From contig JAJDNM010000125.1 in NCBI GenBank assembly GCA_022340665.1, forward strand, positions 28,829 through 92,828: 64,000 nt of DNA. The letters run 5' to 3'. Positions 21,670 through 35,476 of this stretch are shown here, piece after piece (the stretch's first letter is position 1; each line of letters opens with the position of its first letter). A program made the position numbers and the translations under genes. The notes under the pieces were generated by a model, which saw only the letters and a list, made by a program, of their open reading frames with translations, made no database searches and was not told where the DNA came from. The DNA is from Acidobacteriota bacterium (GTDB lineage: Bacteria; Acidobacteriota; Thermoanaerobaculia; Thermoanaerobaculales; Sulfomarinibacteraceae).

Positions 21670-22401
21670 TCAAGCGGGTTGGTTCGACCTCCCATCAAGA
21701 ATAATCGCGACCTCTTCCAGAAGCCTCTCCACGACCTCGTCCAGGCTCGAATCCGTCGTGTCAACGACGACCGATCCTCGTGCGACTTGGAGTGGAGATT
21801 CCGAACGTGATGTGTCTTGACGGTCGCGCCGCTGCTGCTGAATCCTGACATCTTCAAGACTCGTCTCGGGGTCTTTTTCTTTGAGGTCTCGATGACGACG
21901 CCGTGCCCTTTCCTCGGCGCTCGCGGTGAGGAAGACCTTCAGATCGGCATCGGGAAAGACGACGGTTCCAATGTCGCGCCCCTCCATGACTCCACCGTTG
22001 GCCTGCCCGAGCTCCCTTTGCAGTGGAACCAATGCGCTCCTCACTTCCGGCAGCGCCGAGACGGCCGAGGCCATCAGGGAGCACTCCGGAGTCCGGATGT
22101 CGCCACTCACGTCCTGATTGTCGATCAGAACCGCGGTGCCCTCATCCGTGGCCTCGACCTCCAGGAGGTGAGAATGCATCAACTCCACCACCCTCGCGAC
22201 AGCGGCCTCGTCGAGCGGCGGCTCGAGACCTTCCCTCAGAGCCATCAGCGCCACCGCACGGTACATGGCACCTGTGTCGAGGTAGGGAACTCCCAACCGT
22301 TGCGCGAGCATCCGCGCGACGGTGGACTTGCCGGCTCCGGCGGGGCCGTCGATTGCAATGATAGGCGGTGAAGGTCGAGGATCGGCGACGCTTTGAGTCA
22401 A
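21670..22401 (-). CDS. cmk: Cytidylate kinase
   Basis: 243 aa. IAIDGPAGAGKSTVARMLAQRLGVPYLDTGAMYRAV and GRDIGTVVFPDA blocks. The stop overlaps the long-ORF version of rpsA by 4 nt. Confidence 0.95.
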   Translation of the reverse strand: MTQSVADPRPSPPIIAIDGPAGAGKSTVARMLAQRLGVPYLDTGAMYRAVALMALREGLEPPLDEAAVARVVELMHSHLLEVEATDEGTAVLIDNQDVSGDIRTPECSLMASAVSALPEVRSALVPLQRELGQANGGVMEGRDIGTVVFPDADLKVFLTASAEERARRRHRDLKEKDPETSLEDVRIQQQRRDRQDTSRSESPLQVARGSVVVDTTDSSLDEVVERLLEEVAIILDGRSNQPA

Positions 22402-24072
22402 ATCGGGGTCCTTAAAAAAAAATGCGAACCGTCATTGTACAGCGTGCACTATGCTCGTGCAGTGAACGGGATAAAGAATAGACGCCTGTTGCAGGCCGAA
22501 CGCCGCACGTTCGTGGTCCCACGCGCCGGCGGACTTCGAGTCGGAATGGGTTATGCAAATACTTACAGGATCGGAATGTCGTCTCTCGCTTACCAGTGGT
22601 CGGTCGAGCTGGCTGCCGGGATCGGCGACATAGGAGTCGAGAGGTTTTTTGCTGACCCGGAGCTGAGCCCTGGAAGGACGATCGAAGCCCACTCCGCGCT
22701 CGGAGACCTCGATGTGCTCGCCTGGAGCTGTTCCTTCGAGCTCGACACCGCCAATCTGCTCGCAACCCTCGACGCCGCGGGGATTCCGCGCCGCAGCAGT
22801 GAGCGCACCTCGCGGCACCCGCTGTTGGTGATGGGCGGCGCGGTCGCCTCGATCAACCCGCTTCCGCTGGCGCCCGCCATCGATGTTTTCGTGCTCGGTT
22901 CGGCCGAGCTGCTGTGGCCTCCCCTCCTCCATTTGATTCAAGAAAATCCGAGTCGCGATCGGTTGTTGCTTGAACTCGCGGATCGGGACGGTTTCTTCGT
23001 TCCCCGTCACCACCTCGAAGTCGGGGGTCGACCGCAAAAGGTGCGACGGGTCGAAAAACGCGATGTGCACATGGCGGACCCAGCCATGGTCCCGGTCTCT
23101 CATGTCGTCACACCACACACTGAATACAGCAACCGTGGCCTGGTCGAAATGTCCCGCGGTTGCCCGGAAAAGTGCAGATACTGCTGGGTGAGCTACAACT
23201 ACGGTCGTCTGCGGTGCTATCCGAAGGATGCGATCCTCGATCGTGTCGACCGGTTGCATCGAATGACGGACCGGGTAGGCTTCGTGGCGACCGCGGTCGG
23301 CGACCATCCGGATCTGGCGGAGATTCTCGAAGAATGCCGCCGACGGGAGATCAACGTTGCACTCTCCTCCCTGCGCATACCGGCGATGCGGGAGGAGGTC
23401 CTCAAACCATTGGCCGAGTCCGGCGCGCGTTCGATCACAATCGCACCGGAGACGGGCACTGACGAGCTTCGTCGCAAGCTCAACAAACCGATCACCAACG
23501 CCTCGATCCTCGAAGCAGTCGACACGGCCCTTCGCTGCGGCATCGAAAACCTCAAGATGTATTTCATCATCGGCTTGCCAGGAGAGACCGATGGTGACCT
23601 GAAAGGCATCGTCGACCTCCTTCGACAGGCGCAGGAAATCTTGGTCTCCCGCGGACGCGATCGCGGACACGTCGGTACAATTTCGGCCGGTTTCAACGTC
23701 CTCGTACCCAAGCCCTATACCCCGTACGCCCGTGAGGCGATGCTGGATCGACAGGAAGCCCGTCGACGAATGGAGCTGGTTGAAAGCGGAGTTCGCGACA
23801 TCTCCAATCTCCGGACTGAACGGCCGGCCTATCGTGAGGCCGTCTGGCAGGCATTTCTCAGTCGAGGGGACGTGACCGCCTTCGATGTTCTCGCGACGGC
23901 GGCTTCAGGGTGCTCGCTCGGACAGGTGCTCAAGACTCATCGAACGGCCATAGAGGCCTCCGCGCTAAATCACTTCGAGGGCGAACCCGCCTGGCAATTC
24001 GTCACCTCGGCTCCGGTGCGGGAGACATCTCGACGGAAGCCCCCCGTGCCAGGCAGCAACGTGCAAGAGTAG
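22393..24072 (+). CDS. Radical SAM protein with N-terminal B12-binding-like domain (function unknown)
   Basis: Cluster motif EMSRGCPEKCRYCWVSYNYG. The N-terminus reads LRVGMGYANTYRIGMSSLAYQ, as in the uncharacterised B12-like radical SAM families. The track start 22393 overlaps divergent cmk, so the true start is more likely the in-frame GTG at 22444 or 22462. Confidence 0.8.
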   Translation: MSQIGVLKKKCEPSLYSVHYARAVNGIKNRRLLQAERRTFVVPRAGGLRVGMGYANTYRIGMSSLAYQWSVELAAGIGDIGVERFFADPELSPGRTIEAHSALGDLDVLAWSCSFELDTANLLATLDAAGIPRRSSERTSRHPLLVMGGAVASINPLPLAPAIDVFVLGSAELLWPPLLHLIQENPSRDRLLLELADRDGFFVPRHHLEVGGRPQKVRRVEKRDVHMADPAMVPVSHVVTPHTEYSNRGLVEMSRGCPEKCRYCWVSYNYGRLRCYPKDAILDRVDRLHRMTDRVGFVATAVGDHPDLAEILEECRRREINVALSSLRIPAMREEVLKPLAESGARSITIAPETGTDELRRKLNKPITNASILEAVDTALRCGIENLKMYFIIGLPGETDGDLKGIVDLLRQAQEILVSRGRDRGHVGTISAGFNVLVPKPYTPYAREAMLDRQEARRRMELVESGVRDISNLRTERPAYREAVWQAFLSRGDVTAFDVLATAASGCSLGQVLKTHRTAIEASALNHFEGEPAWQFVTSAPVRETSRRKPPVPGSNVQE

Positions 24073-24139: not shown

Positions 24140-25234
24140 TCACCGGCGCCGTCCGACGGAGAATCCTCTCAGAGTTCCTTCTCGAGAGGACGCGATGAAC
24201 ACTGGCACCTCCACGGGTTCCCTTTCGTTTTCCCTTGTGCTGATACGTAACCACCCTTCGATCGTGCCGGCAAACTCCCTCGAGCGAGCGTCCGGCACCA
24301 ACTCCACGCGCAACATCTGCCGTACTCCGGGTTTTGGCGAAACGGCCGAAGCTGAAAAGACGTCGGGATGCGAGACTTTTACGGCGGTGACGGAAAACTC
24401 CTCGCCCGCGTTGTTTTGTAGGGTCACTACGGCCGAGATGCCGTCTCCGGTGCCGCTCGGAGACGACCACAGCCTCGCTCCGCGGGGGCGTGGTTCGATC
24501 ACAGGTCGCACTCGCGCGGCATAGGGTACGTCGACTGCTGTGGCAATCGGGTGGTTGGTCTTCAGCTTGACCTTTCCTGTCCAAGATCCGACAGGTGCGT
24601 CGTCCTCAAGGGCCAGTTCGAGCCACACATCTCCTGGAACGGCTTCCACCCCATCGTATTCTTCTCGCCTCTCGACCGTCTCGGTTTTCGCAAACAAAGC
24701 CTGGTTCCCGGTCTCCGCCTGCAGCACCTCCAGCGCCTGACCGTCGGCCCTTCGCAGCAACACTCGCGCGGTCTTCCTCTCCCCTTTCATTGCCGAGATA
24801 ACGAGCCGGTCGTGCGGCAGGACGCGCAACGGAGTTTCGACATTGACCGAGAAGCGGAGATTGATGTCAGAGGCACTTGAGGCATCCGTGCGAACCGCGA
24901 CCGATTTCGAGACCCTCCGATTGAGAAGAGGTGCGGTGTGCAGCCTCGCTACGAGCTTTCCCGACTCACCTGCCGGGATGACCGAATCATACTCGGCCAG
25001 CGTGCATCCTCAAGATGGTTTCGCGCGGATAATGTGAACGTCTTCCGTACCGTCGTTGTGGAACACGAAGACTGCCTCGGCAACCGTGCCGGCGACGATC
25101 GTGCCCAGATCCAGCTCGCGGCTCTCCACCCGAAACGACGGATTGCCATCCCCTTCAGCGGCCGCCAGCGGCGCGGAAAGAATGATTCCGAAGGTCGCAG
25201 CCGCCAACGTGGCTGCATGAAGAACACGCACCAT
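24140..25234 (-). CDS. Secreted DUF1573-domain protein with in-frame TGA at 25010..25012 (candidate selenocysteine codon; otherwise a pseudogene)
   Basis: Track ORFs 25010..25234 and 24140..24829 are in the same frame, with no other stop between them. Read-through gives a signal peptide MVRVLHAATLAAATFGIILSAPLAAAEG, then LDLGTIVAGTVAEAVFVFHNDGTEDVHIIRAKPS-[TGA]-GCTLAEYDSVIPAGESGKLVARL. The DUF1573 hallmark is F.N.G...L.I..V..SCGCT....PI.PG..G.I.V, so the TGA occupies the first Cys. Read-through totals 364 codons. Confidence 0.6.
24976..25012 (-). promoter_or_regulatory. Candidate bacterial SECIS hairpin immediately 3' of the in-frame UGA
   Basis: mRNA: UGA GGAU GCACGCU GGCCGA GUAUGAU UCGGUC AUCC. 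The lower stem is GGAU/AUCC (4 bp). The 11-nt spacer from the UGA is GGAU plus the 7-nt 5' bulge GCACGCU. The upper stem is GGCCGA/UCGGUC (6 bp, one G-U) and starts at nt 12 after the UGA. The 7-nt apical loop begins with GU. This geometry resembles the E. coli fdhF-type SECIS (minimal upper stem-loop 11 nt from the UGA, G/U in the loop). Confidence 0.5.
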
Positions 25235-25303: not shown

Positions 25304-26083
25304 TCAGCCGGCGATCCGGTACTCCCCGAGGATCTGGCCTCGGGTACTCACGACCAGGCACTCAACTGGAACGTTTCGTTTTGAGCGACACGCCGCCTCT
25401 TCTGCCAGCCGCACCAAACCGCCGCAGCACGGAACCTCCATCACCATGACCTTGAGGCTACGGATCTTCGCTTCGTCGATCATCGTCATCAGCTTCTGCA
25501 GGTAGATCTCCTGGTTGCTATCGAGCTTGGGACACGCAATGGCCAGGGAAGAGCCGGCAAGATATCGCTGGTGGAAGTCGCCAACCGCGAAAGCGACACA
25601 GTCGGCGGCCAGGAGAACATCCTGGTCCTGGAAGAACGGCGCGGTCGGTTGCACGAGATGGAGTTGGACCGGCCAGTGGCGCAACCGGGAGGGTTGTCCG
25701 TCCGCGTCGATCATAGGACTTGCCACCGGCGTTTGGTGGAACTGAGGTCGTGACCCTGGGCAGCCTCCACCGACTGGAATCGGTGCCTGATCCAGGATAT
25801 TGAATTGACGGCGAGAAATGTCGGGGGAGCCACCCTTTTGCCTCTGCGCGAGGTGCCGTTCGACCGCTTGTTCATCGAATGCACCAGCCTCCCGCTCAAC
25901 GACCTTGAGTGCACCCTGGGGGCAGTGGCCGAGACAGGCACCGAGCCCGTCGCAATAGACGTCGCTGATCAGACGCGCCTTGCCGTCGATGAGCGCGATT
26001 GCTCCTTCGGCACAGGCGGTAATACAATCGCCGCACCCGTCGCAGAGTGCTTCGTCTATTTCGATGACCTCTCGGACTGCCAT
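25304..26083 (-). CDS. 2x[4Fe-4S] ferredoxin-domain protein with Cys-rich C-terminal domain
   Basis: 259 aa. CDGCGDCITAC and CDGLGACLGHCP are dicluster ferredoxin motifs. The C-terminal domain carries ADCVAF, ACPKLD and EVPCCGGL cysteines. Confidence 0.75.
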   Translation of the reverse strand: MAVREVIEIDEALCDGCGDCITACAEGAIALIDGKARLISDVYCDGLGACLGHCPQGALKVVEREAGAFDEQAVERHLAQRQKGGSPDISRRQFNILDQAPIPVGGGCPGSRPQFHQTPVASPMIDADGQPSRLRHWPVQLHLVQPTAPFFQDQDVLLAADCVAFAVGDFHQRYLAGSSLAIACPKLDSNQEIYLQKLMTMIDEAKIRSLKVMVMEVPCCGGLVRLAEEAACRSKRNVPVECLVVSTRGQILGEYRIAG

Positions 26084-26086
26084 GAT

Positions 26087-26533
26087 CTACTCCTCCTGCT
26101 TCTGATCACGCAACATCGTCAGCAGCATGCGGCTCGGCTCCGACGCCCGAAGCGCATGCGGAACGTTGGCCGGCATCCGTACGATTTCACCTGGACCGAC
26201 CCTAACCGGTGCTCCCCCGATGACGATGTCTAACCGACCATCAACGACCTGGACAAGTGCGTCGAACGGGGCCGTGTGTTCCGATAGGCTCTGACCGCCA
26301 TCGAATGCGAACAGTGTCACGCTGCCACCGTTGGTTTTCGCCAATACCCGGCTGACGATAGCGCCTTCGGCGATCTGCACGAGCTCGATCAACGCGCTGG
26401 AGTGGTCCGCCGCCAGAGCTTCGTTGGTGTCTGCGGAAGTTTTCTTCATTGCCGGATCCTTCAACGGTTCGTCATCGCTCCCGAGCATTCTGTGGTCTGC
26501 AACGGTCTTTTGTCCTTGATGAAGGTCAAGCAC
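26087..26533 (-). CDS. Cupin-domain protein
   Basis: Cupin beta-barrel pattern: LFAFDGGQSLSEHTAPFDALVQVVDGRLDIVIGG...GEIVRMPANVPHAL. An internal ATG at 26449 (MKKTSADTNE) is an alternative start. The track start overlaps the LarA-like stop by 8 nt. Confidence 0.65.
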   Translation of the reverse strand: MLDLHQGQKTVADHRMLGSDDEPLKDPAMKKTSADTNEALAADHSSALIELVQIAEGAIVSRVLAKTNGGSVTLFAFDGGQSLSEHTAPFDALVQVVDGRLDIVIGGAPVRVGPGEIVRMPANVPHALRASEPSRMLLTMLRDQKQEE

Positions 26534-27794
26534 CCCGGGGACGTGGATACACCGCGCCCGACGCCATCACTGCGACACTCTCTCCTTGGTGCCGCTCACG
26601 CCATTCTTCTATAACGGAATCAGGGTCCTGGATCGGTTCGAAACCCAGCCGCAGCGCCACGTCGGAATCGATGTTGGAGCAAAGCCTGACGCGGTAGCGA
26701 GAAGATTTTTCGACGATTCGAAGCGTCGTGTGTCCATACTGCACCCACTCGCGTGACAGTTTCTCGAGAATCCTCGCCGGCGTAGGGTTCTCCACGAATG
26801 GCGCCATGGCCGGTGATCCCAGGCCTCCGGCAAGCGAAGCAACCCACAGCATTTCGCCTCCGGGCTCGAGGAATCGGCACGCCGCGTCGAGCGACTTGTG
26901 AGCCTGGATCAGAGTGTCGTCTGTTGGGGCGCCACCCGACGACGCAACCATGAGATTGTAGCGCCGCCCGAGCGGGACCTGAAACCACGTCCGTACGCGG
27001 TCGACGGCGGCTTCAAATGCCTGTTGCCACGGTCCGGCACCTGCCCATGCAATTCCCCCGTCTCGTCCTTCAACAAGGCAGAGGGCGAATTCCGGGGACC
27101 GGAGGCTCACACCGCGGCGGATCTCCTCGGCAACCGGATTTCCTACGAGGACTCCAGGCTCACACCCGGGGTGCCTGGCTGCACCGTCTGTTCCGGGATC
27201 GAGGACCAGCGCGTGATTGGCCTGGATCTCAGTGTGCCCGGATACACCTGGGAAGACCATCTTGGGTCCACCGCCGAAACCCGCGAAGTAGTGGTGGCGC
27301 ACGGCGCCCACTGTGACCAGAAAGTCGGTCTCGACCGCGCTCGGATGAAGGCGCAACGGAAGTCCCGGGCGAATCTCACCTACGGTAACCAAATTGGTTG
27401 CCCGGCTTTCATGTTGGGCGATCCGGATCGAAGGCGAGAGCGGTCCGAGGAGCTCGGTGAGTGATTCCGGCCCCACTGGCGGATGGGTTCCATTCGCCAC
27501 AAGTACCGTGATCGATCGATCCTCGATTCCGGCGCGGGTCAGGTGTTCGATCAATATCGGAAGGACCGACGGGAGATCGGTCTTGCGCGTTGCGTCCGGG
27601 ACAATCACGGTGGCGGTCTTTCTTCCTCGTCCGATTTCCGCAAGGGGAGGGCCGAAGACCGGATTCTCGAGGGCTGCTTCTGCCAACTTCGACGGATCGC
27701 GACCTGGCGGTGCCGAAGGCGCAAGAGCACGAACTCGGAATCCCCGCAGGTCGAGCGGAACGTGCTCGTCGCCGAACGGCAATTTGACAATCAC
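26526..27794 (-). CDS. LarA-like protein (DUF2088, nickel-pincer-cofactor-dependent racemase/epimerase family)
   Basis: By eye it aligns with L. plantarum LarA: IVPDATRKTDLPSVLPILIEHL / ITVLVANGTHPP / HHYFAGFGGGPKMVFPGV (cofactor-tethering Lys region) / ANHALV. I moved the start to GTG 27794 (MIVKLPFGDE) because the TTG at 27839 would overlap the divergent AMMECR1 gene. Confidence 0.7.
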   Translation of the reverse strand: MIVKLPFGDEHVPLDLRGFRVRALAPSAPPGRDPSKLAEAALENPVFGPPLAEIGRGRKTATVIVPDATRKTDLPSVLPILIEHLTRAGIEDRSITVLVANGTHPPVGPESLTELLGPLSPSIRIAQHESRATNLVTVGEIRPGLPLRLHPSAVETDFLVTVGAVRHHYFAGFGGGPKMVFPGVSGHTEIQANHALVLDPGTDGAARHPGCEPGVLVGNPVAEEIRRGVSLRSPEFALCLVEGRDGGIAWAGAGPWQQAFEAAVDRVRTWFQVPLGRRYNLMVASSGGAPTDDTLIQAHKSLDAACRFLEPGGEMLWVASLAGGLGSPAMAPFVENPTPARILEKLSREWVQYGHTTLRIVEKSSRYRVRLCSNIDSDVALRLGFEPIQDPDSVIEEWRERHQGESVAVMASGAVYPRPRGA

Positions 27795-27820
27795 CCGGAC
27801 ACGATACCATTCTGTCCGAG

Positions 27821-28384
27821 ATGCATACCGGCTCGCCAACCCAGGAAATCGATCAACAGGAGAGAGGGTTTCTCCTCTCGCTGGCGAGAGAGTCGATTCG
27901 GTGTCGCCTCGCGGGTGAGCCCACGCCCTCTCCCGAATCGGTCGGCGGCGTGCTCAGCGAGATCAGGGGGGCATTCGTCACCCTCAAGATTGACGGGCGG
28001 CTGAGGGGATGTATCGGCCATGTGGTTGGCGTCGAACCGTTATGGCAAGCTGTACGGAGCAACGCCGTCGCGGCCGCGTTTGATGATCCCAGGTTCGAAC
28101 CGCTTCGAGACGACGAGCTGGACAACGTACATATCGAAATCTCGGCGCTCAGTCCTCTGCGTAGGGTCGATACCGACGATGTCATCCTGGGCAGAGACGG
28201 CATACTCATCGAGCGCGGTCCCCGCCGCGGACTCTTGCTTCCTCAAGTCGCAGTCGAGTATGGGTGGGACCGCGAGACCTTTCTCGATCACACCTGCCGC
28301 AAGGCCGGCCTCGATCCCGGCTGTTGGCGTCATGCGGATACCATTGTCTGGGCATTTTCGGCGGAGGTTTTTGGCGAGTTGTGA
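27821..28384 (+). CDS. AMMECR1-domain protein
   Basis: 187 aa. GAFVTLKIDGRLRGCIGH and DPRFEPL...L.I.ISALSPL are AMMECR1 hallmarks. Confidence 0.85.
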   Translation: MHTGSPTQEIDQQERGFLLSLARESIRCRLAGEPTPSPESVGGVLSEIRGAFVTLKIDGRLRGCIGHVVGVEPLWQAVRSNAVAAAFDDPRFEPLRDDELDNVHIEISALSPLRRVDTDDVILGRDGILIERGPRRGLLLPQVAVEYGWDRETFLDHTCRKAGLDPGCWRHADTIVWAFSAEVFGEL

Positions 28385-28463: not shown

Positions 28464-29207
28464 ATGGCGTTAGGTGGATTGATGCTGGTCGAACCGTCGT
28501 TGCCCGGGAATCTCGGTGCGGCGATGCGGGTGGCGGCCAACTTTGGCGTCAGGCGTATAGAGCTCGTCCGCCCGTCCGTTTTGCCCGACGACCCTGACGT
28601 CCTCAACTGGGCTTGCGGGGCCGAGCGCTTCGTAGATTGTCGGATATTCGAGCACTTCAACCAAGCGGCCAAGCGATATCACACTCTCGCCGCCTCGGCT
28701 TCGGGCCGCGGGCGGAGAAATTTGCCGGTTGTCTCACCCGACGAAGCAGGTCCCCTGTTGTTCCAACGGGGCATCGAGGGTGTCGCCTTGGTCTTCGGTA
28801 ACGAGACCAGAGGCCTCAGCCGCGATGATCTCGATAGATGCGATCTCGTCGTCCGCATTCCCACTGAAGCGGCATTTCCGGTGCTCAACCTCGCACAGGC
28901 GGTGGCCATACTCGTTTCGAGCTTTCGAGCGGAGGTTGATGACGGCGATCCCACGCTCCCCCAGCCTGCCTCTCAGGACGCGGTAGAAGGGCTGATGGGT
29001 CACCTCGAACAGAGCCTTCTGACAATCGGATTTCTGGATCCGCTGAGTCCGAAGAGGATTTTGCGGCAAATCCGGCGCCTTTTCGGAAGGGCTGGGATCA
29101 CTCACAGCGAGGTCAGGATTCTGCGCGGGATCTGCCGCCAGATGGAGTGGGCCGCCGGAGCCAAGCCGGGACGGTTCAGCACCGGTGAAGGCGACGAAGA
29201 AGGGTGA
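28464..29207 (+). CDS. SpoU/TrmH-class RNA 2'-O-methyltransferase (TrmJ-like)
   Basis: 247 aa. LVEPSLPGNLGAAMRVAANFG, LVFGNETRGLS and LNLAQAVAI are SPOUT motifs 1-3. Confidence 0.75.
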   Translation: MALGGLMLVEPSLPGNLGAAMRVAANFGVRRIELVRPSVLPDDPDVLNWACGAERFVDCRIFEHFNQAAKRYHTLAASASGRGRRNLPVVSPDEAGPLLFQRGIEGVALVFGNETRGLSRDDLDRCDLVVRIPTEAAFPVLNLAQAVAILVSSFRAEVDDGDPTLPQPASQDAVEGLMGHLEQSLLTIGFLDPLSPKRILRQIRRLFGRAGITHSEVRILRGICRQMEWAAGAKPGRFSTGEGDEEG

Positions 29208-31606: not shown

Positions 31607-34600
31607 CTATCGATCAGCCTTCCTCGAAATACCCAGATTCCTCAGATGATAGAGGAGCGCTTGGCGCGATATGCCGAGCTCACGAGCTGTTGCGCTGCGG
31701 TTACCGTTGTTCCGTTCCAGTGCAGCGGAAAGGAATTTTCGCCTGAAATCCCGCTGCGCATCTTCCCAGGTGCCAGACGATACGTTTTCCGTCTCGGCGA
31801 TGGGTAGGTGATCAGGGCGGATTACACCGCCGGACGCCCGAACCAGGGCGACCTCAATCGCGTGCCTCAGCTCCCGTACATTTCCGGGCCACGAATATTT
31901 GCGAAGCATGGCTTCCGTCTCCCGGCTCCAGGTACCCGCCCGGACGCCATGTCGAGCGATCGCTTCCTTTTCGAAGAGGTCTCGCAAGAGGGAGATATCT
32001 TCACGACGCTCCCGAAGCGGTGGAATCGTGAGTTCGGGAGCGGCGATTCGGAAATACAGGTCCTGTCGAAACGCCCCCTCCCTCACTCGGCGGGCAAGAT
32101 CCTGATGTGTTGCGGAAATAATCCGAACGTCGACCTTCTGAGGATGTGTCGCTCCAACCGCGCGCACCTCCTGGCCTTCGAGGAAGCGCAACAGCTTGAC
32201 CTGCAGAGGAGGATCGAGGTCGCCGACCTCATCGAGGAACAGGGTGCCGCGATCGGCTGTCACAGCCAGGCCCTGGCGCGATCGGTCCGCGCCAGTAAAT
32301 GCTCCTTTGACTGATCCGAAAAGCTCGGCCTCGAGCAAGTTTGAAGGGATTGCCGCGATGTTGACCGGCACAAACGTACCCGGTCGTCTGGAAAGGCGAT
32401 GCAGGGCGCGAGCCGCGACCTCCTTGCCCACGCCGGTTTCTCCGACCAGGAGAATGGGGAGATGGCTCGGACCGAGCTCGAGGAGTTCCTTTCGCACCCG
32501 CCGGGCCGCGCGGGAGATGCCGAGAAAACCCGTTTCCTCGACCTCGAGTTCGTCTTTCGTCGCCGATGCAGGAGCGAAAATTTCGAGGATCCCGGTCAAC
32601 AGGCGCCATTTCGCATCGTCCTGTGCCTCGCCGCCCAGTGGCACCACAACGATGCGTCCGCGGCGGATCGCCGTCCCCGGCGGCCCTCCGCCGACGCCCC
32701 ACAAGATTTCGTTACTTCCGGCGTCCCGGAGCTCGAGGCCGGATAGGCCGAGAGCCGAGAGCAGATGTTCGATCTGGCGTGATTCGAGTTCGTCGGGTCC
32801 TGCGCGCTCGACGATTTCCGCGAGAGCTTCGACGATACCCCTGTCACCGCCTGTTCCAAGGGTGAGAACCTCGGCCCATCCCACCATCCCGCCTTCACGA
32901 AGCACTCGCATTGCCTGAGCGCGTGTCGTTTCGGGAATCGTTAAACGGGTACGCCCACAGTATTCTGCGAGCGCGAGGCCGAATGCCGACGGTTTGGTCA
33001 TCCTAGAGGTGATTTGGAGCGCTCCGGCCCCGCCGACCCCGTTCCAGGCATCGGCGAGCAACTCCGCCGCAATTGCCACTCCCCAGCCGTCGGCCTGCCA
33101 CGAACCCGTCTCACGGCCAGCGATCGTCTCTACCAGGCCAACCCAGGCTTCGCCTTCTTGTCCTCCGCCCTTCAGAAGCCCGTGCGCCCGGGCAAGCTCG
33201 CCGTTGAAGACAGCAGCCACGCCCCGAAGAAGGCGAAGCGCCTCCGCGAACCTCGGGTCCTCCTCGTCGACCCTGGCTGCGAATTCGTCGAGCAGCCGGC
33301 GAAACTCCGCGAGCTCCCCTTTCGCCAATGCAAGCCGCGACAATTCTCCGAGGATCCAGGGGTCGTCCGGCTGGCCCTTCCCGAGTGCCCGAAACCGATC
33401 TTCGGCACGCCGGAGCTCGAGCTGGTCGAGATCACCGACCGCGAGGTTGTAGAGCACCCGCTGGGTGACGTGCTCGAAGCCCGCCGCCTGAAGCAGCCGA
33501 TAGGCTCTGAGCTGGTGGGCATCGCCATCACGACTCCGACCCTCATCGAGCGCGACAGAGCCCAGGTCGTGCTCGATCATGCCAAGTATTCCGGGACCCA
33601 TACGATCGTCGACCAGCAACTCGAACAAACGCCGCGACGCCCGTGGTCGGTCGCGGTCCGAAAGCTGTCTCGCGTGGCGGTGGGCGAGGGTGGCGCGGAG
33701 GACCGGATGGTCTCCTGCCACACGTCTCCTCCATTCCGGTTGATCGAAGCTTGCGTCGTCCGCAGCCCAGGCGAACTCGATTTCGAGTCTCCGACGAAGG
33801 AGAGGAGGCAACCGGTCCCTGGCCTGCTCTATCAGGGAGCGCGCTTTCTCGAGTCTGTCCCCACCGTGCCTGCGGTCATCGTTGTAGACGAGGATTGCAG
33901 TTTCCGCCACCGCCCGTGGGGCGTACTCGAGAGCCGCGGATTCTGGCAGCTCGGGGCGGCGATCGGATGGATCGTCGATCGCATCGAGCCACTTGCGAAA
34001 AGTTTCGGCCTGTTTCCCGGAGATGGCGTCGATCGCTTGCCGAGCGCAGCCGACGTCGAGGACGGCGAGGCAGGCTTCCGCGAAAAGAACTCCGATCTCG
34101 CGTCCGAGAGCTCCAGGGGCAACGATCGCAAGGAGATCTCGCACTGAGATCGCATCGAGGAGGTCCAACCGCTCTCTTGCCCATTTTCTGAGGGGCTCGA
34201 TGTCACCTCTCCCGAGCGCCAGATGAAGGAGTCGGCGCGGGTTTTCCTTCGGATAGAGATCCGCTACCGCCGTATGCAGAGGGTCCGGTTCGAGAAGGCG
34301 TATGTCCGCCAGGCGCCATCGTCCGCCACGGTCGACGATTGCCAACTCACCGATCTGTTCGTCGATCGATCTCTGTTTGAGACCGGAATGCAGAGTCACG
34401 AATCCGGGTGGCAGGCCATCCGGTGACAGCGCGAGAACCTGCGCCACCTTATTGGTGCGTGGCTTGCTCCCGAAATCGCTACCGGCATCACCGATCGACT
34501 CGTACACCGTCCGAGCCGCATCGGTGAGCGATCCGCGATCGACCCGGTCGAACGGGTCGAACCGATTCGTGCGTTGCTCGACGAATCGACGGGCTTCTTC

Positions 34601-35476
34601 CAGGGGTACTCCGGCAACTGCGAGATGACGAAACGGAATCTGTGGATCGAAACAGGGTGGACGTGGCGGGTGCCAGCCGCTCGGAAACCTGCCGACTACC
34701 ACTGCACTGCACCGCTCGCCTTTCACCCAGCGAGACACTGACGCCAGTTCGTCGGCCGACGCCTCTCCGACCAGGATCAGGGTGCCACGGCCTCCGACCG
34801 GTGGCGGCGCGACGGACCTCCCGAAATCGTTACCCGCTGCCCAGAGCCGAGCATGACCCCTTCGTCTGCTGATTTCGGCCCACAATCCTCCAGCCAGGCG
34901 GCGCGCAAGTTCGGGCGAGGGTACCTGCCAGTAATCGATCGCGCCAGCCGCAGGAATCGGCAGGCCGTCCCACCGAAATGCCCACAGTGCCCGCGCAACG
35001 GATCGGTCCAACGGCCGCTTCAGATCGCGGAGTTGTCGGCTCAGAGCGGCCTCGAGGAAGAATCCGGGCTCCCCTTTGCTCGCATCGATAGATGCCACGG
35101 GCAGGTTGACGGCTTCGCTGATGGCCGAGATGAGAGCAGTCCGCGTGGCCACCGCCGCCGCCTCTCCCCCCCCGAGTCGCGAGAAGACCCTCGACATTGG
35201 CACCGGATACCGTGCCAGTTGCACGCTCACGCCTTCCGGAGTACGGACAAATCTCGCATCCCGAATGGCGGCCTTCCCGGGCCACAGATCGAACTCTGCC
35301 AGAAGTGACGCCGCCGCCGTGAGCTGGAGGGCCGCTCCCAGCCGGTGCTTGCGGCTCAGCACGCGGGCCGTGACCCGATCGCCCTCGATGTCGCTCTCGT
35401 ACGGTCCCTCAACGATTCGCGGAATCGGCACCGCCGGATGTTCCACCAGCATCGCGGCGGGAGTCGGGATCCTCAA
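31607..35476 (-). CDS. Giant sigma-54-dependent transcriptional activator (bEBP) with ~940-aa uncharacterised N-terminal region
   Basis: 1289 aa. The C-terminal AAA+ sigma-54 interaction domain has Walker A LLVGETGVGKE, the GAFTGA loop (KGAFTGA), Walker B LFLDEVGDL and WPGNVRELRHAIE. A Fis-type HTH follows (NGNRSATARELGISRQALLYHLRNLGI). The N-terminus has TPR-like helices (about residues 640-760) but no REC, PAS or GAF pattern that I recognise. The TTG start overlaps the aroA stop (TTGA); ATG 35452 is an alternative. Confidence 0.85.
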   Translation of the reverse strand: MRIPTPAAMLVEHPAVPIPRIVEGPYESDIEGDRVTARVLSRKHRLGAALQLTAAASLLAEFDLWPGKAAIRDARFVRTPEGVSVQLARYPVPMSRVFSRLGGGEAAAVATRTALISAISEAVNLPVASIDASKGEPGFFLEAALSRQLRDLKRPLDRSVARALWAFRWDGLPIPAAGAIDYWQVPSPELARRLAGGLWAEISRRRGHARLWAAGNDFGRSVAPPPVGGRGTLILVGEASADELASVSRWVKGERCSAVVVGRFPSGWHPPRPPCFDPQIPFRHLAVAGVPLEEARRFVEQRTNRFDPFDRVDRGSLTDAARTVYESIGDAGSDFGSKPRTNKVAQVLALSPDGLPPGFVTLHSGLKQRSIDEQIGELAIVDRGGRWRLADIRLLEPDPLHTAVADLYPKENPRRLLHLALGRGDIEPLRKWARERLDLLDAISVRDLLAIVAPGALGREIGVLFAEACLAVLDVGCARQAIDAISGKQAETFRKWLDAIDDPSDRRPELPESAALEYAPRAVAETAILVYNDDRRHGGDRLEKARSLIEQARDRLPPLLRRRLEIEFAWAADDASFDQPEWRRRVAGDHPVLRATLAHRHARQLSDRDRPRASRRLFELLVDDRMGPGILGMIEHDLGSVALDEGRSRDGDAHQLRAYRLLQAAGFEHVTQRVLYNLAVGDLDQLELRRAEDRFRALGKGQPDDPWILGELSRLALAKGELAEFRRLLDEFAARVDEEDPRFAEALRLLRGVAAVFNGELARAHGLLKGGGQEGEAWVGLVETIAGRETGSWQADGWGVAIAAELLADAWNGVGGAGALQITSRMTKPSAFGLALAEYCGRTRLTIPETTRAQAMRVLREGGMVGWAEVLTLGTGGDRGIVEALAEIVERAGPDELESRQIEHLLSALGLSGLELRDAGSNEILWGVGGGPPGTAIRRGRIVVVPLGGEAQDDAKWRLLTGILEIFAPASATKDELEVEETGFLGISRAARRVRKELLELGPSHLPILLVGETGVGKEVAARALHRLSRRPGTFVPVNIAAIPSNLLEAELFGSVKGAFTGADRSRQGLAVTADRGTLFLDEVGDLDPPLQVKLLRFLEGQEVRAVGATHPQKVDVRIISATHQDLARRVREGAFRQDLYFRIAAPELTIPPLRERREDISLLRDLFEKEAIARHGVRAGTWSRETEAMLRKYSWPGNVRELRHAIEVALVRASGGVIRPDHLPIAETENVSSGTWEDAQRDFRRKFLSAALERNNGNRSATARELGISRQALLYHLRNLGISRKADR

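Follow-up and report, generated by a model that had tools for sequence, protein, structure and literature searches.

An in-frame UGA followed by a conserved two-hairpin RNA element marks a probable selenoprotein gene of the DUF1573 family in Acidobacteriota

The subject of this analysis is a gene of the DUF1573 family on the minus strand of a 64,000-nucleotide stretch of DNA (referred to as the window; positions 28,829 to 92,828 of contig JAJDNM010000125.1, assembly GCA_022340665.1) from an acidobacterium of the Sulfomarinibacteraceae. Judged from the comparative data, this locus very likely (with a probability of roughly 0.87) represents one gene for an exported protein with three immunoglobulin-like (Ig-like) domains, which would carry a UGA-encoded selenocysteine (Sec, U) in a U-G-C motif of its DUF1573 domain. 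On translation, the minus strand from 25234 to 24140 was found to be one reading frame of 365 codons with the TGA at 25012..25010 as its lone internal stop. The mechanically generated list of open reading frames (ORFs) gives the locus as two pieces, 25010..25234 (74 amino acids) and 24140..24829. The initial annotation of this DNA had already described the split, the common frame and the single TGA at the first Cys of an S-C-G-C-T motif, all of which translation confirmed; it had also let the second piece start with an ATG at 24829, where this piece actually begins with TTG. The stop stands in the context ...VHIIRAKPS-TGA-GGA-TGC-ACG (S-U-G-C-T), so that the read-through product is ...VHIIRAKPS*GCTLAEYDSVIPAGESGK..., and U75 and C77 are the sole Sec or Cys residues of the window protein. 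The features that define the gene are the following:

24140..25234, minus strand: complete ORF read through its one internal UGA, 364 codons and a terminal TGA (24140..24142)
25010..25012, minus strand: in-frame UGA, which as the candidate codon for Sec at residue 75 opens the U-G-C motif
25004..25006, minus strand: TGC codon of Cys77, the partner of Sec in U-G-C (TGC in 43 of 43 copies)
24839..25132, minus strand: Ig-like domain DUF1573 (PF07610) extending across the UGA, residues 35-132

When Cys is put in place of the stop, the Pfam profile of DUF1573 (PF07610) matches residues 35-132 with 56.3 bits against a cutoff of 26.1 and is covered from position 2 to 98 of 98. As the profile matches at full length across the stop, the TGA must lie inside a single domain. 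Several relatives (P0024, P0195, P0040/41, L074 and L080) contain Cys at the Sec position. The ortholog P0024, which has 369 amino acids and is 41% identical, reads ...KPSCGCTVAEFD through the site, and a C-G-C is present in P0024, P0195, P0040/41 and L074 where the window has S-[UGA]-G-C-T, this being the family motif that follows the N.G...I..(K)PS strand. The genes of P0024 and P0195 are moreover found in the same neighbourhood, with a cupin gene followed by a Fer4/AF_0155 gene and then the DUF1573 gene. By alignment, the in-frame UGA appears to be one half of a Sec/Cys pair, its homologs containing Cys.

DNA was retrieved for 74 related loci, which apart from L074 (29%) share 34-99% protein identity. 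These loci come from metagenome-assembled genomes (MAGs) of Ca. Sulfomarinibacter/Sulfomarinibacteraceae, other Thermoanaerobaculia, Holophagae and unclassified Acidobacteriota as well as from metagenomes, and they include one bin labelled Chondromyces. A TGA was present at the homologous codon in 73 of the 74 loci, the exception being L074 with TGT, and four more distant loci (L075, L077-L079) likewise have TGA at the Sec codon. Each of the 43 distinct full-length copies contains exactly one in-frame stop and zero frameshifts. For 112 pairs with a synonymous substitution rate (dS) of 0.15-0.9, the ratio of non-synonymous to synonymous rates (dN/dS) was 0.17 over the 45 codons that precede the UGA and 0.27 over the rest of the gene from codon +19 onward, which indicates purifying selection on both sides. 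Both kinds of relatives for which the initial annotation had proposed to look, orthologs with TGA and homologs with Cys across the site, were hence found, and its further suggestion of comparing dN/dS up- and downstream of the TGA also turned out in favor of a continuous gene.

The same picture is given by the protein databases. Relatives of the read-through product are nearly all 262-313 amino acids long and begin right after the stop (MAEYDSVIPAG...). A query with the DUF1573 domain (residues 27-134) yielded about 70 fragments, mostly of 74 amino acids, and all those that were read terminate at ...KPS. A profile of such N-terminal fragments, run against 1.84 billion representatives of clusters at 50% identity, yielded about 100 further short proteins with the same end position; the inspected members each have a signal peptide and a ...[RK]A[KA]P[ST] terminus.

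Two observations on individual records may be added. The fragments P0160 and P0185 start with the shared N-terminus but continue, still ahead of the Sec site, with unrelated sequence, and probably derive from frameshifted or chimeric metagenome contigs. The MAG labelled Chondromyces sp. (L008, DATIVB010000056.1) differs in the 75 nucleotides (nt) around the TGA at 3 positions from the Thermoanaerobaculia MAG L007, and its gene neighbours are those of L007, which suggests a mis-binned or mis-classified contig.

Directly downstream of the UGA, the coding sequence exhibits a sharply delimited block in which synonymous change is suppressed, and this block coincides with two predicted hairpins:

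24956..24997, minus strand: block of suppressed synonymous change, codons +5..+18 (+13..+54 after the UGA, 42 nt), taken as the extent of the conserved RNA element
24979..24999, minus strand: hairpin 1, UGGCCGAGU-AUG-AUUCGGUCA, +11..+31 after the UGA, 9 base pairs (bp), 3-nt loop, -9.8 kcal/mol
24959..24978, minus strand: hairpin 2, UCCCGGC-AGGUGA-GUCGGGA, +32..+51, 7 bp, 6-nt loop, -11.0 kcal/mol, with GGU at +40..+42

The third-position entropy of codons +5..+18 is 0.23 bits, as compared to an average of 1.49 along the gene and to a minimum of 1.26 bits in any other window of 14 codons. In line with this, dS is 0.04 inside the block and 0.72 downstream, and the mean pairwise nucleotide identity amounts to 94.5% in the block, 55-67% in the flanking blocks of 42 nt and 56.5% over the whole ORF. 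Within the block even the choice of codon is fixed (GCC in 42 of 42 copies, GAG and TCG each in 43 of 43, GGT in 42 of 43 and GCA in 41 of 42), whereas invariant residues outside of it (Gly -31, Gly -26, Pro -2 and Leu +19) are encoded by several codons. For the Cys-type forms, DNA from two loci was compared, the syntenic L080 and the distant L074 (29% identical). L080 reads GCT GAC TAC GAT CGG GTG ATC CCG GCG GGA GGG ACC in the region of the element, by which hairpin 1 is destroyed and the GGU of the loop is lost; in L074 the two-hairpin fold is absent. In these alignments, a conserved RNA structure follows the UGA immediately in the Sec-type genes and is absent from the two Cys forms.

Folding of the single sequence and of the alignment agree in two directly adjacent hairpins. 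The paired cells of both are 97.9% complementary in 56 distinct sequences, as compared to 24-55% after the partners had been shifted against each other by 1-3 columns. One pair of hairpin 1, formed by synonymous positions, covaries among these 56 sequences (G-C in 37, C-G in 10, A-U in 1, unpaired in 8). In L062 and L079 a change from GAG to GGG (E to G) is matched by a change from TCG to CCG (S to P), which converts an A-U pair of hairpin 1 to G-C, and in L058 and L079 hairpin 2 is shifted in register after an Ala to Pro exchange, with a loop starting in GG being kept (GGC in L058, GGU in L079). The loop of hairpin 1 is variable (ACG, AUG, UCG or CAUGA), whereas the GGU of hairpin 2 stays at +40..+42, with L058 (GGC) as the lone exception seen. 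The folding energy of the single sequence is unexceptional (z-scores of -1.17 relative to dinucleotide shuffles and of -1.8 relative to synonymously recoded sequences), and the evidence for the RNA element is comparative in weight rather than thermodynamic.

With regard to the structure, the initial annotation was right in part. It had placed a hairpin just after the UGA, and a conserved structure whose first hairpin lies 11 nt off was indeed found, although as a pair of hairpins and not as a single one. The upper stem of 6 bp with a 7-nt loop starting in GU that it had drawn is replaced by the predicted fold of 9 bp with a 3-nt AUG loop; a loop beginning with GU belongs neither to this fold nor to the one conserved in the alignment. 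Its lower stem, GGAU/AUCC, could not be upheld, as the third (middle) pair is formed in only 12 of 56 orthologs and the stem competes with both conserved hairpins, the second included. Its expectation that the hairpin is kept in orthologs with TGA accordingly holds for the two hairpins, which are about 98% paired, and fails for the lower stem.

Two details of the window copy stand apart from this. Together with L016 and L039 it has a GAC to GAT change (24976..24990) that makes a G-C pair G-U, and a loop AUG for the consensus ACG; its hairpin 1 is the weakest of the set, with -9.8 as compared to -12.1 kcal/mol. The loop of hairpin 2, AGGUGR (24962..24967, minus strand), resembles a Shine-Dalgarno sequence; no plausible in-frame start follows, and the resemblance is taken as coincidence.

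In E. coli, the Sec insertion sequence (SECIS) of fdhF is a hairpin that begins 11 nt after the UGA. The element described here resembles both this example and the bacterial SECIS consensus in the placement of its stem-loops, which are part of the coding sequence and follow the UGA directly. Hairpin 1 shares with fdhF the start after 11 nt, and hairpin 2 shares with the consensus a GG(U) in the first positions of the loop. Unlike the consensus and fdhF, there are two adjacent hairpins in place of one and no conserved lower stem that includes the UGA, and the two hallmarks of the consensus are divided, with the well-spaced hairpin having no G in the required part of its loop and the hairpin with the GGU loop standing 38 nt from the UGA.

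Assuming that the UGA is read as Sec, a factor of the SelB type carrying Sec-tRNA(Sec) would bind to the 42-nt element and deliver Sec at the UGA. Of the two, hairpin 2 would be the likelier contact of SelB, because the GGU of its loop stays constant even where a synonymous change would be permitted, in contrast to the freely varying loop of hairpin 1. The latter might then act as a structural spacer of 21 nt; with these nucleotides folded out, hairpin 2 would start about 10-11 nt from the UGA, at the spacing found in E. coli. It is conceivable, though we regard it as rather doubtful, that the element represents a distinct bipartite class of SECIS, in which a rigid 21-nt spacer hairpin is stacked with a SelB-contact hairpin carrying the GGU loop, and that this class marks a large uncatalogued clade. 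The same tentative proposal, to which no more confidence attaches, would include that the 42-nt element has hardly changed across two or more acidobacterial classes, over which the identity of the protein has dropped to about 35%.

Several points weigh against the interpretation as a selenoprotein gene. The structure of the element is mostly invariant and not covarying, so that, within the alignment, the support for pairing comes from few independent events. According to the published consensus, a bacterial SECIS has a loop of 3-9 nt, an upper stem of 4-16 bp, a minimum free energy of at most -7.5 kcal/mol, a G among the first two positions of the loop and 16-37 nt between UGA and loop (PMC13188914). 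In loop size, stem length and free energy, hairpin 1 and hairpin 2 alike lie within these ranges. Hairpin 1 also fits in its spacing from UGA to loop (20 nt), but its loop, ACG or AUG, has a G only in the third position; the loop of hairpin 2, AGGUGR, fits the rule for G, but its spacing is 38 nt with a limit of 37. Neither hairpin alone thus agrees with the published consensus in every respect. The loci were retrieved with degenerate back-translated peptides (AEYDSVIP and AGGSGKL), both of which lie inside the RNA element, and this inflates the amino-acid conservation inside the block, while synonymous sites should be free of the bias. Retrieval by these peptides also favours Sec-type copies, yet searches with the N-terminal part show the same picture. 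No tRNA, including tRNA-Sec, was found by ARAGORN in the 64-kb window or in 25 related loci, and SelA, SelB and SelD were not among the approximately 50 ORFs of the window annotated with Pfam. Finally, no experimental incorporation of selenium into any DUF1573 protein could be found in the literature consulted.

Recoding of the UGA to an amino acid other than Sec was considered as one alternative. Here, a SelB-like factor would act with a tRNA(Sec)-like tRNA(Cys) (selC*), or the hairpins would stimulate near-cognate read-through with Cys or Trp, and which amino acid is inserted cannot be told from the sequence alone. Anaerobic bacteria have been reported to possess Cys tRNAs that resemble tRNA(Sec) and might function as opal suppressors, and for Acidobacteria there are reports of unusual suppressor tRNAs. 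The reported selC* genes, however, belong to Firmicutes, Thermodesulfobacteria, Nitrospirae and Proteobacteria and not to Acidobacteria. It would also be hard to explain why a costly UGA together with an RNA element is found in about 100 divergent clusters for the sake of Cys, since a TGC suffices, and the UGA aligns with the Cys of the motif as in classical Sec/Cys pairs. This alternative is accordingly judged improbable. A low probability is also assigned to the idea that the 42-nt element has a role other than or beyond the recruitment of SelB, for example in pausing, regulation or the binding of a small RNA or protein, with one or neither hairpin being a true SECIS. This idea draws on the incomplete match of either hairpin to the SECIS consensus, on a fixation that extends to all nucleotides, those of the linker and of the loop of hairpin 2 among them, and goes further than would be needed for a generic stem-loop, and on the Rfam searches, in which no family matched the element at gathering thresholds and none matched around the site at E-values up to 10. 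Against it stand the placement of the element, from 11 nt after the UGA to no further than 54 nt, and its decay in the Cys-type L080; position and decay together tie it to the decoding of the UGA. Moreover, some bacterial SECIS elements are reported to lie outside the consensus model (PMC13188914).

The remaining alternatives can be set aside almost entirely. Public annotation presents the locus as two hypothetical ORFs, as would be seen with a pseudogene or with a sequencing or assembly error in an ordinary Cys gene; but the TGA occurs in more than 70 independent assemblies, neither frameshifts nor extra stops occur in the 43 distinct copies, and dN/dS is well below 1 on both sides. The initial annotation had left room for an assembly error and for pseudogene decay, and the comparative data already refute both. 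Gene callers likewise predict precisely two genes, which would correspond to a secreted peptide of 74 amino acids and a downstream protein starting at an internal TTG, CTG or GTG. Such a split would fall in the middle of one beta-sandwich domain and leave the downstream piece without a signal peptide, the start codons called for this piece vary among the orthologs, and the Cys-type orthologs are single proteins; two independent genes had been held unlikely from the outset, and with one domain spanning the stop this assessment is borne out. Hence, the conservation of the TGA, the single stops, the dN/dS values and the syntenic Cys-type proteins exclude assembly error, pseudogene and separate genes for practical purposes. 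A genome-wide reassignment of UGA is excluded as well, because ordinary genes of the window stop with TGA more often than with any other codon, as do those for iPGM, PP2C, IHF, HIT, S1, SerA and Fer4; this agrees with the earlier remark that TGA is a normal stop elsewhere in the window.

The reading of the locus as a selenoprotein gene connects it to a family that is already known. While the initial annotation supposed that DUF1573 might be unlisted, DUF1573 (PF07610) with the motif UGC is included in lists of prokaryotic selenoprotein families (PMC9312934, PMC13188914). Both reviews credit the study of the Olavius symbiont metagenome by Zhang & Gladyshev 2007 (NAR), in which the family bears the name OS_HP2. 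Furthermore, it is represented in NCBIfam by the model NF041425 ('OS_HP2 family (seleno)protein'), whose curated cutoff is 100 bits. This value is reached neither by the window protein, with 61.2 bits, nor by the relatives tested: the scores were 56.7-79.2 bits for five Sec-type orthologs, 53.7 for the Cys ortholog P0024 and 33.6 for the distant Cys-type P0040. The window protein is like OS_HP2 in the PF07610 domain, in Sec standing for the first Cys of CGC to give U-G-C, and in the basis of its prediction, an in-frame TGA with a stem-loop behind it. Compared via the profile and published descriptions, it differs by its score under the NF041425 cutoff and by two extra Ig-like domains, and its clade comes from Acidobacteriota, whereas OS_HP2 comes from deltaproteobacterial worm symbionts. 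By these scores, the acidobacterial three-domain clade is a divergent one outside the curated NF041425 subfamily. Every database record seen for this clade is a fragment labelled hypothetical or DUF1573 and never selenoprotein, which is probably explained by the clade scoring under the cutoff. For neither Sulfomarinibacter nor Thermoanaerobaculia did literature searches bring up a paper mentioning selenocysteine; selenoproteins have been reported for some Acidobacteria. What is new here is confined to the clade itself, a mis-annotated branch of a predicted selenoprotein family that was already known, and to its unusual recoding element of two hairpins.

Beyond the DUF1573 domain, the protein has the following predicted parts:

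25157..25234, minus strand: predicted signal peptide of the Sec-pathway type, residues 1-26, MVRVLHAATLAAATFGIILSAPLAAA with cleavage before EG, read from the sequence
24143..24838, minus strand: two further beta-sandwich (Ig-like) domains, residues 133-364, taken from the model of P0024

The signal peptide, which had been noticed before, remains a prediction and is recognizable by a charged n-region, a hydrophobic core and an A-x-A site; about 20 divergent N-terminal fragments show this pattern as well. Residues 1-28 of P0024, the equivalent of this peptide, are disordered in the AlphaFold2 model. This model (predicted local distance difference test, pLDDT, 87.4) comprises three beta-sandwich domains, and the position equivalent to Sec is located by secondary structure in a turn between strands 66-73 and 77-82. 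A Foldseek search of the PDB returned only generic tandem Ig repeats of the HYDIN/ASH type, which give no functional lead, a sequence search of the PDB had zero matches, and the literature consulted gives no function for DUF1573. After export by the Sec pathway and cleavage of the signal peptide, U75 and C77 would be the only redox-active residues, and according to the modelled secondary structure they would sit in and just after the turn between two beta-strands. There, they probably form an exposed selenenylsulfide/selenol-thiol centre for periplasmic redox or metal(loid) chemistry. In its predicted extracytoplasmic location and in having Sec near a resolving Cys, the window protein is like the exported DsbA-like and thiol-disulfide isomerase-like selenoproteins. 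It differs from these by an Ig-like beta-sandwich instead of the thioredoxin fold, by a U-x-C motif instead of U-x-x-C (listed as UxxC for the DsbA-like family), and in that DUF1573 has no known catalytic function.

Selenoprotein genes are routinely mis-called as two ORFs, and here a whole clade is affected, with about 70 N-terminal fragments and about 100 clusters. A correction would add a selenoprotein to Thermoanaerobaculia (Sulfomarinibacter) and Holophagae, which are abundant lineages of marine sediments. If the bipartite SECIS should prove true, the approximately 100 divergent clusters would be periplasmic U-G-C selenoproteins of sediment Acidobacteriota that annotation pipelines have missed. 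The near-invariant two-hairpin element offers a natural test of how much deviation from the E. coli model is tolerated in the geometry of a bacterial SECIS, and a U-G-C centre on an exported Ig-like scaffold offers a handle on the function of DUF1573.

The window was also scanned for further selenoprotein genes, as same-frame pairs of ORFs joined by one TGA with at least 80 codons on each side. No genuine further pair was found in the window with this filter, which would miss cases like the present target. The TGA-joined pairs PP2C/iPGM, IHF/HIT and SerA/SerC were rejected as ordinary adjoining genes. A candidate with multiple Sec residues, consisting of three same-frame segments joined by TGAs on the plus strand (32945..34741), was rejected as the antisense shadow of a gene for a sigma-54-dependent activator of 1289 amino acids (31607..35476, minus strand). 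The motif of hairpin 2 does not occur a second time in the window, and the element was not found in viral contigs.

Upstream of the selenoprotein gene and on the same strand, three genes were identified by Pfam:

26526..27839, minus strand: LarA_N-like gene
26087..26566, minus strand: cupin gene
25304..26083, minus strand: Fer4/AF_0155 gene

With gaps of a few to about 70 nt, these three genes precede the selenoprotein gene, with which, from their arrangement, they probably form an operon. Their order is kept in loci of Thermoanaerobaculia and Holophagae (L004-L015, L078) and beside Cys-type orthologs. A scan for promoters and terminators around the operon remained at chance level.

On the other side, a convergent gene for a B12-binding radical SAM protein (22393..24072, plus strand) is TIGR03960-like, with 207.6 bits and thus below the cutoff of 462. 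Its end is 67 nt from the stop of the selenoprotein gene, and it is syntenic in most orthologous loci. The gap between the two genes contains a perfect 7-bp inverted repeat, AGTGCCC-ACC-GGGCACT, without a T-tract. Between lineages, the upstream neighbours are 55-87% identical and the selenoprotein only 36-57%.

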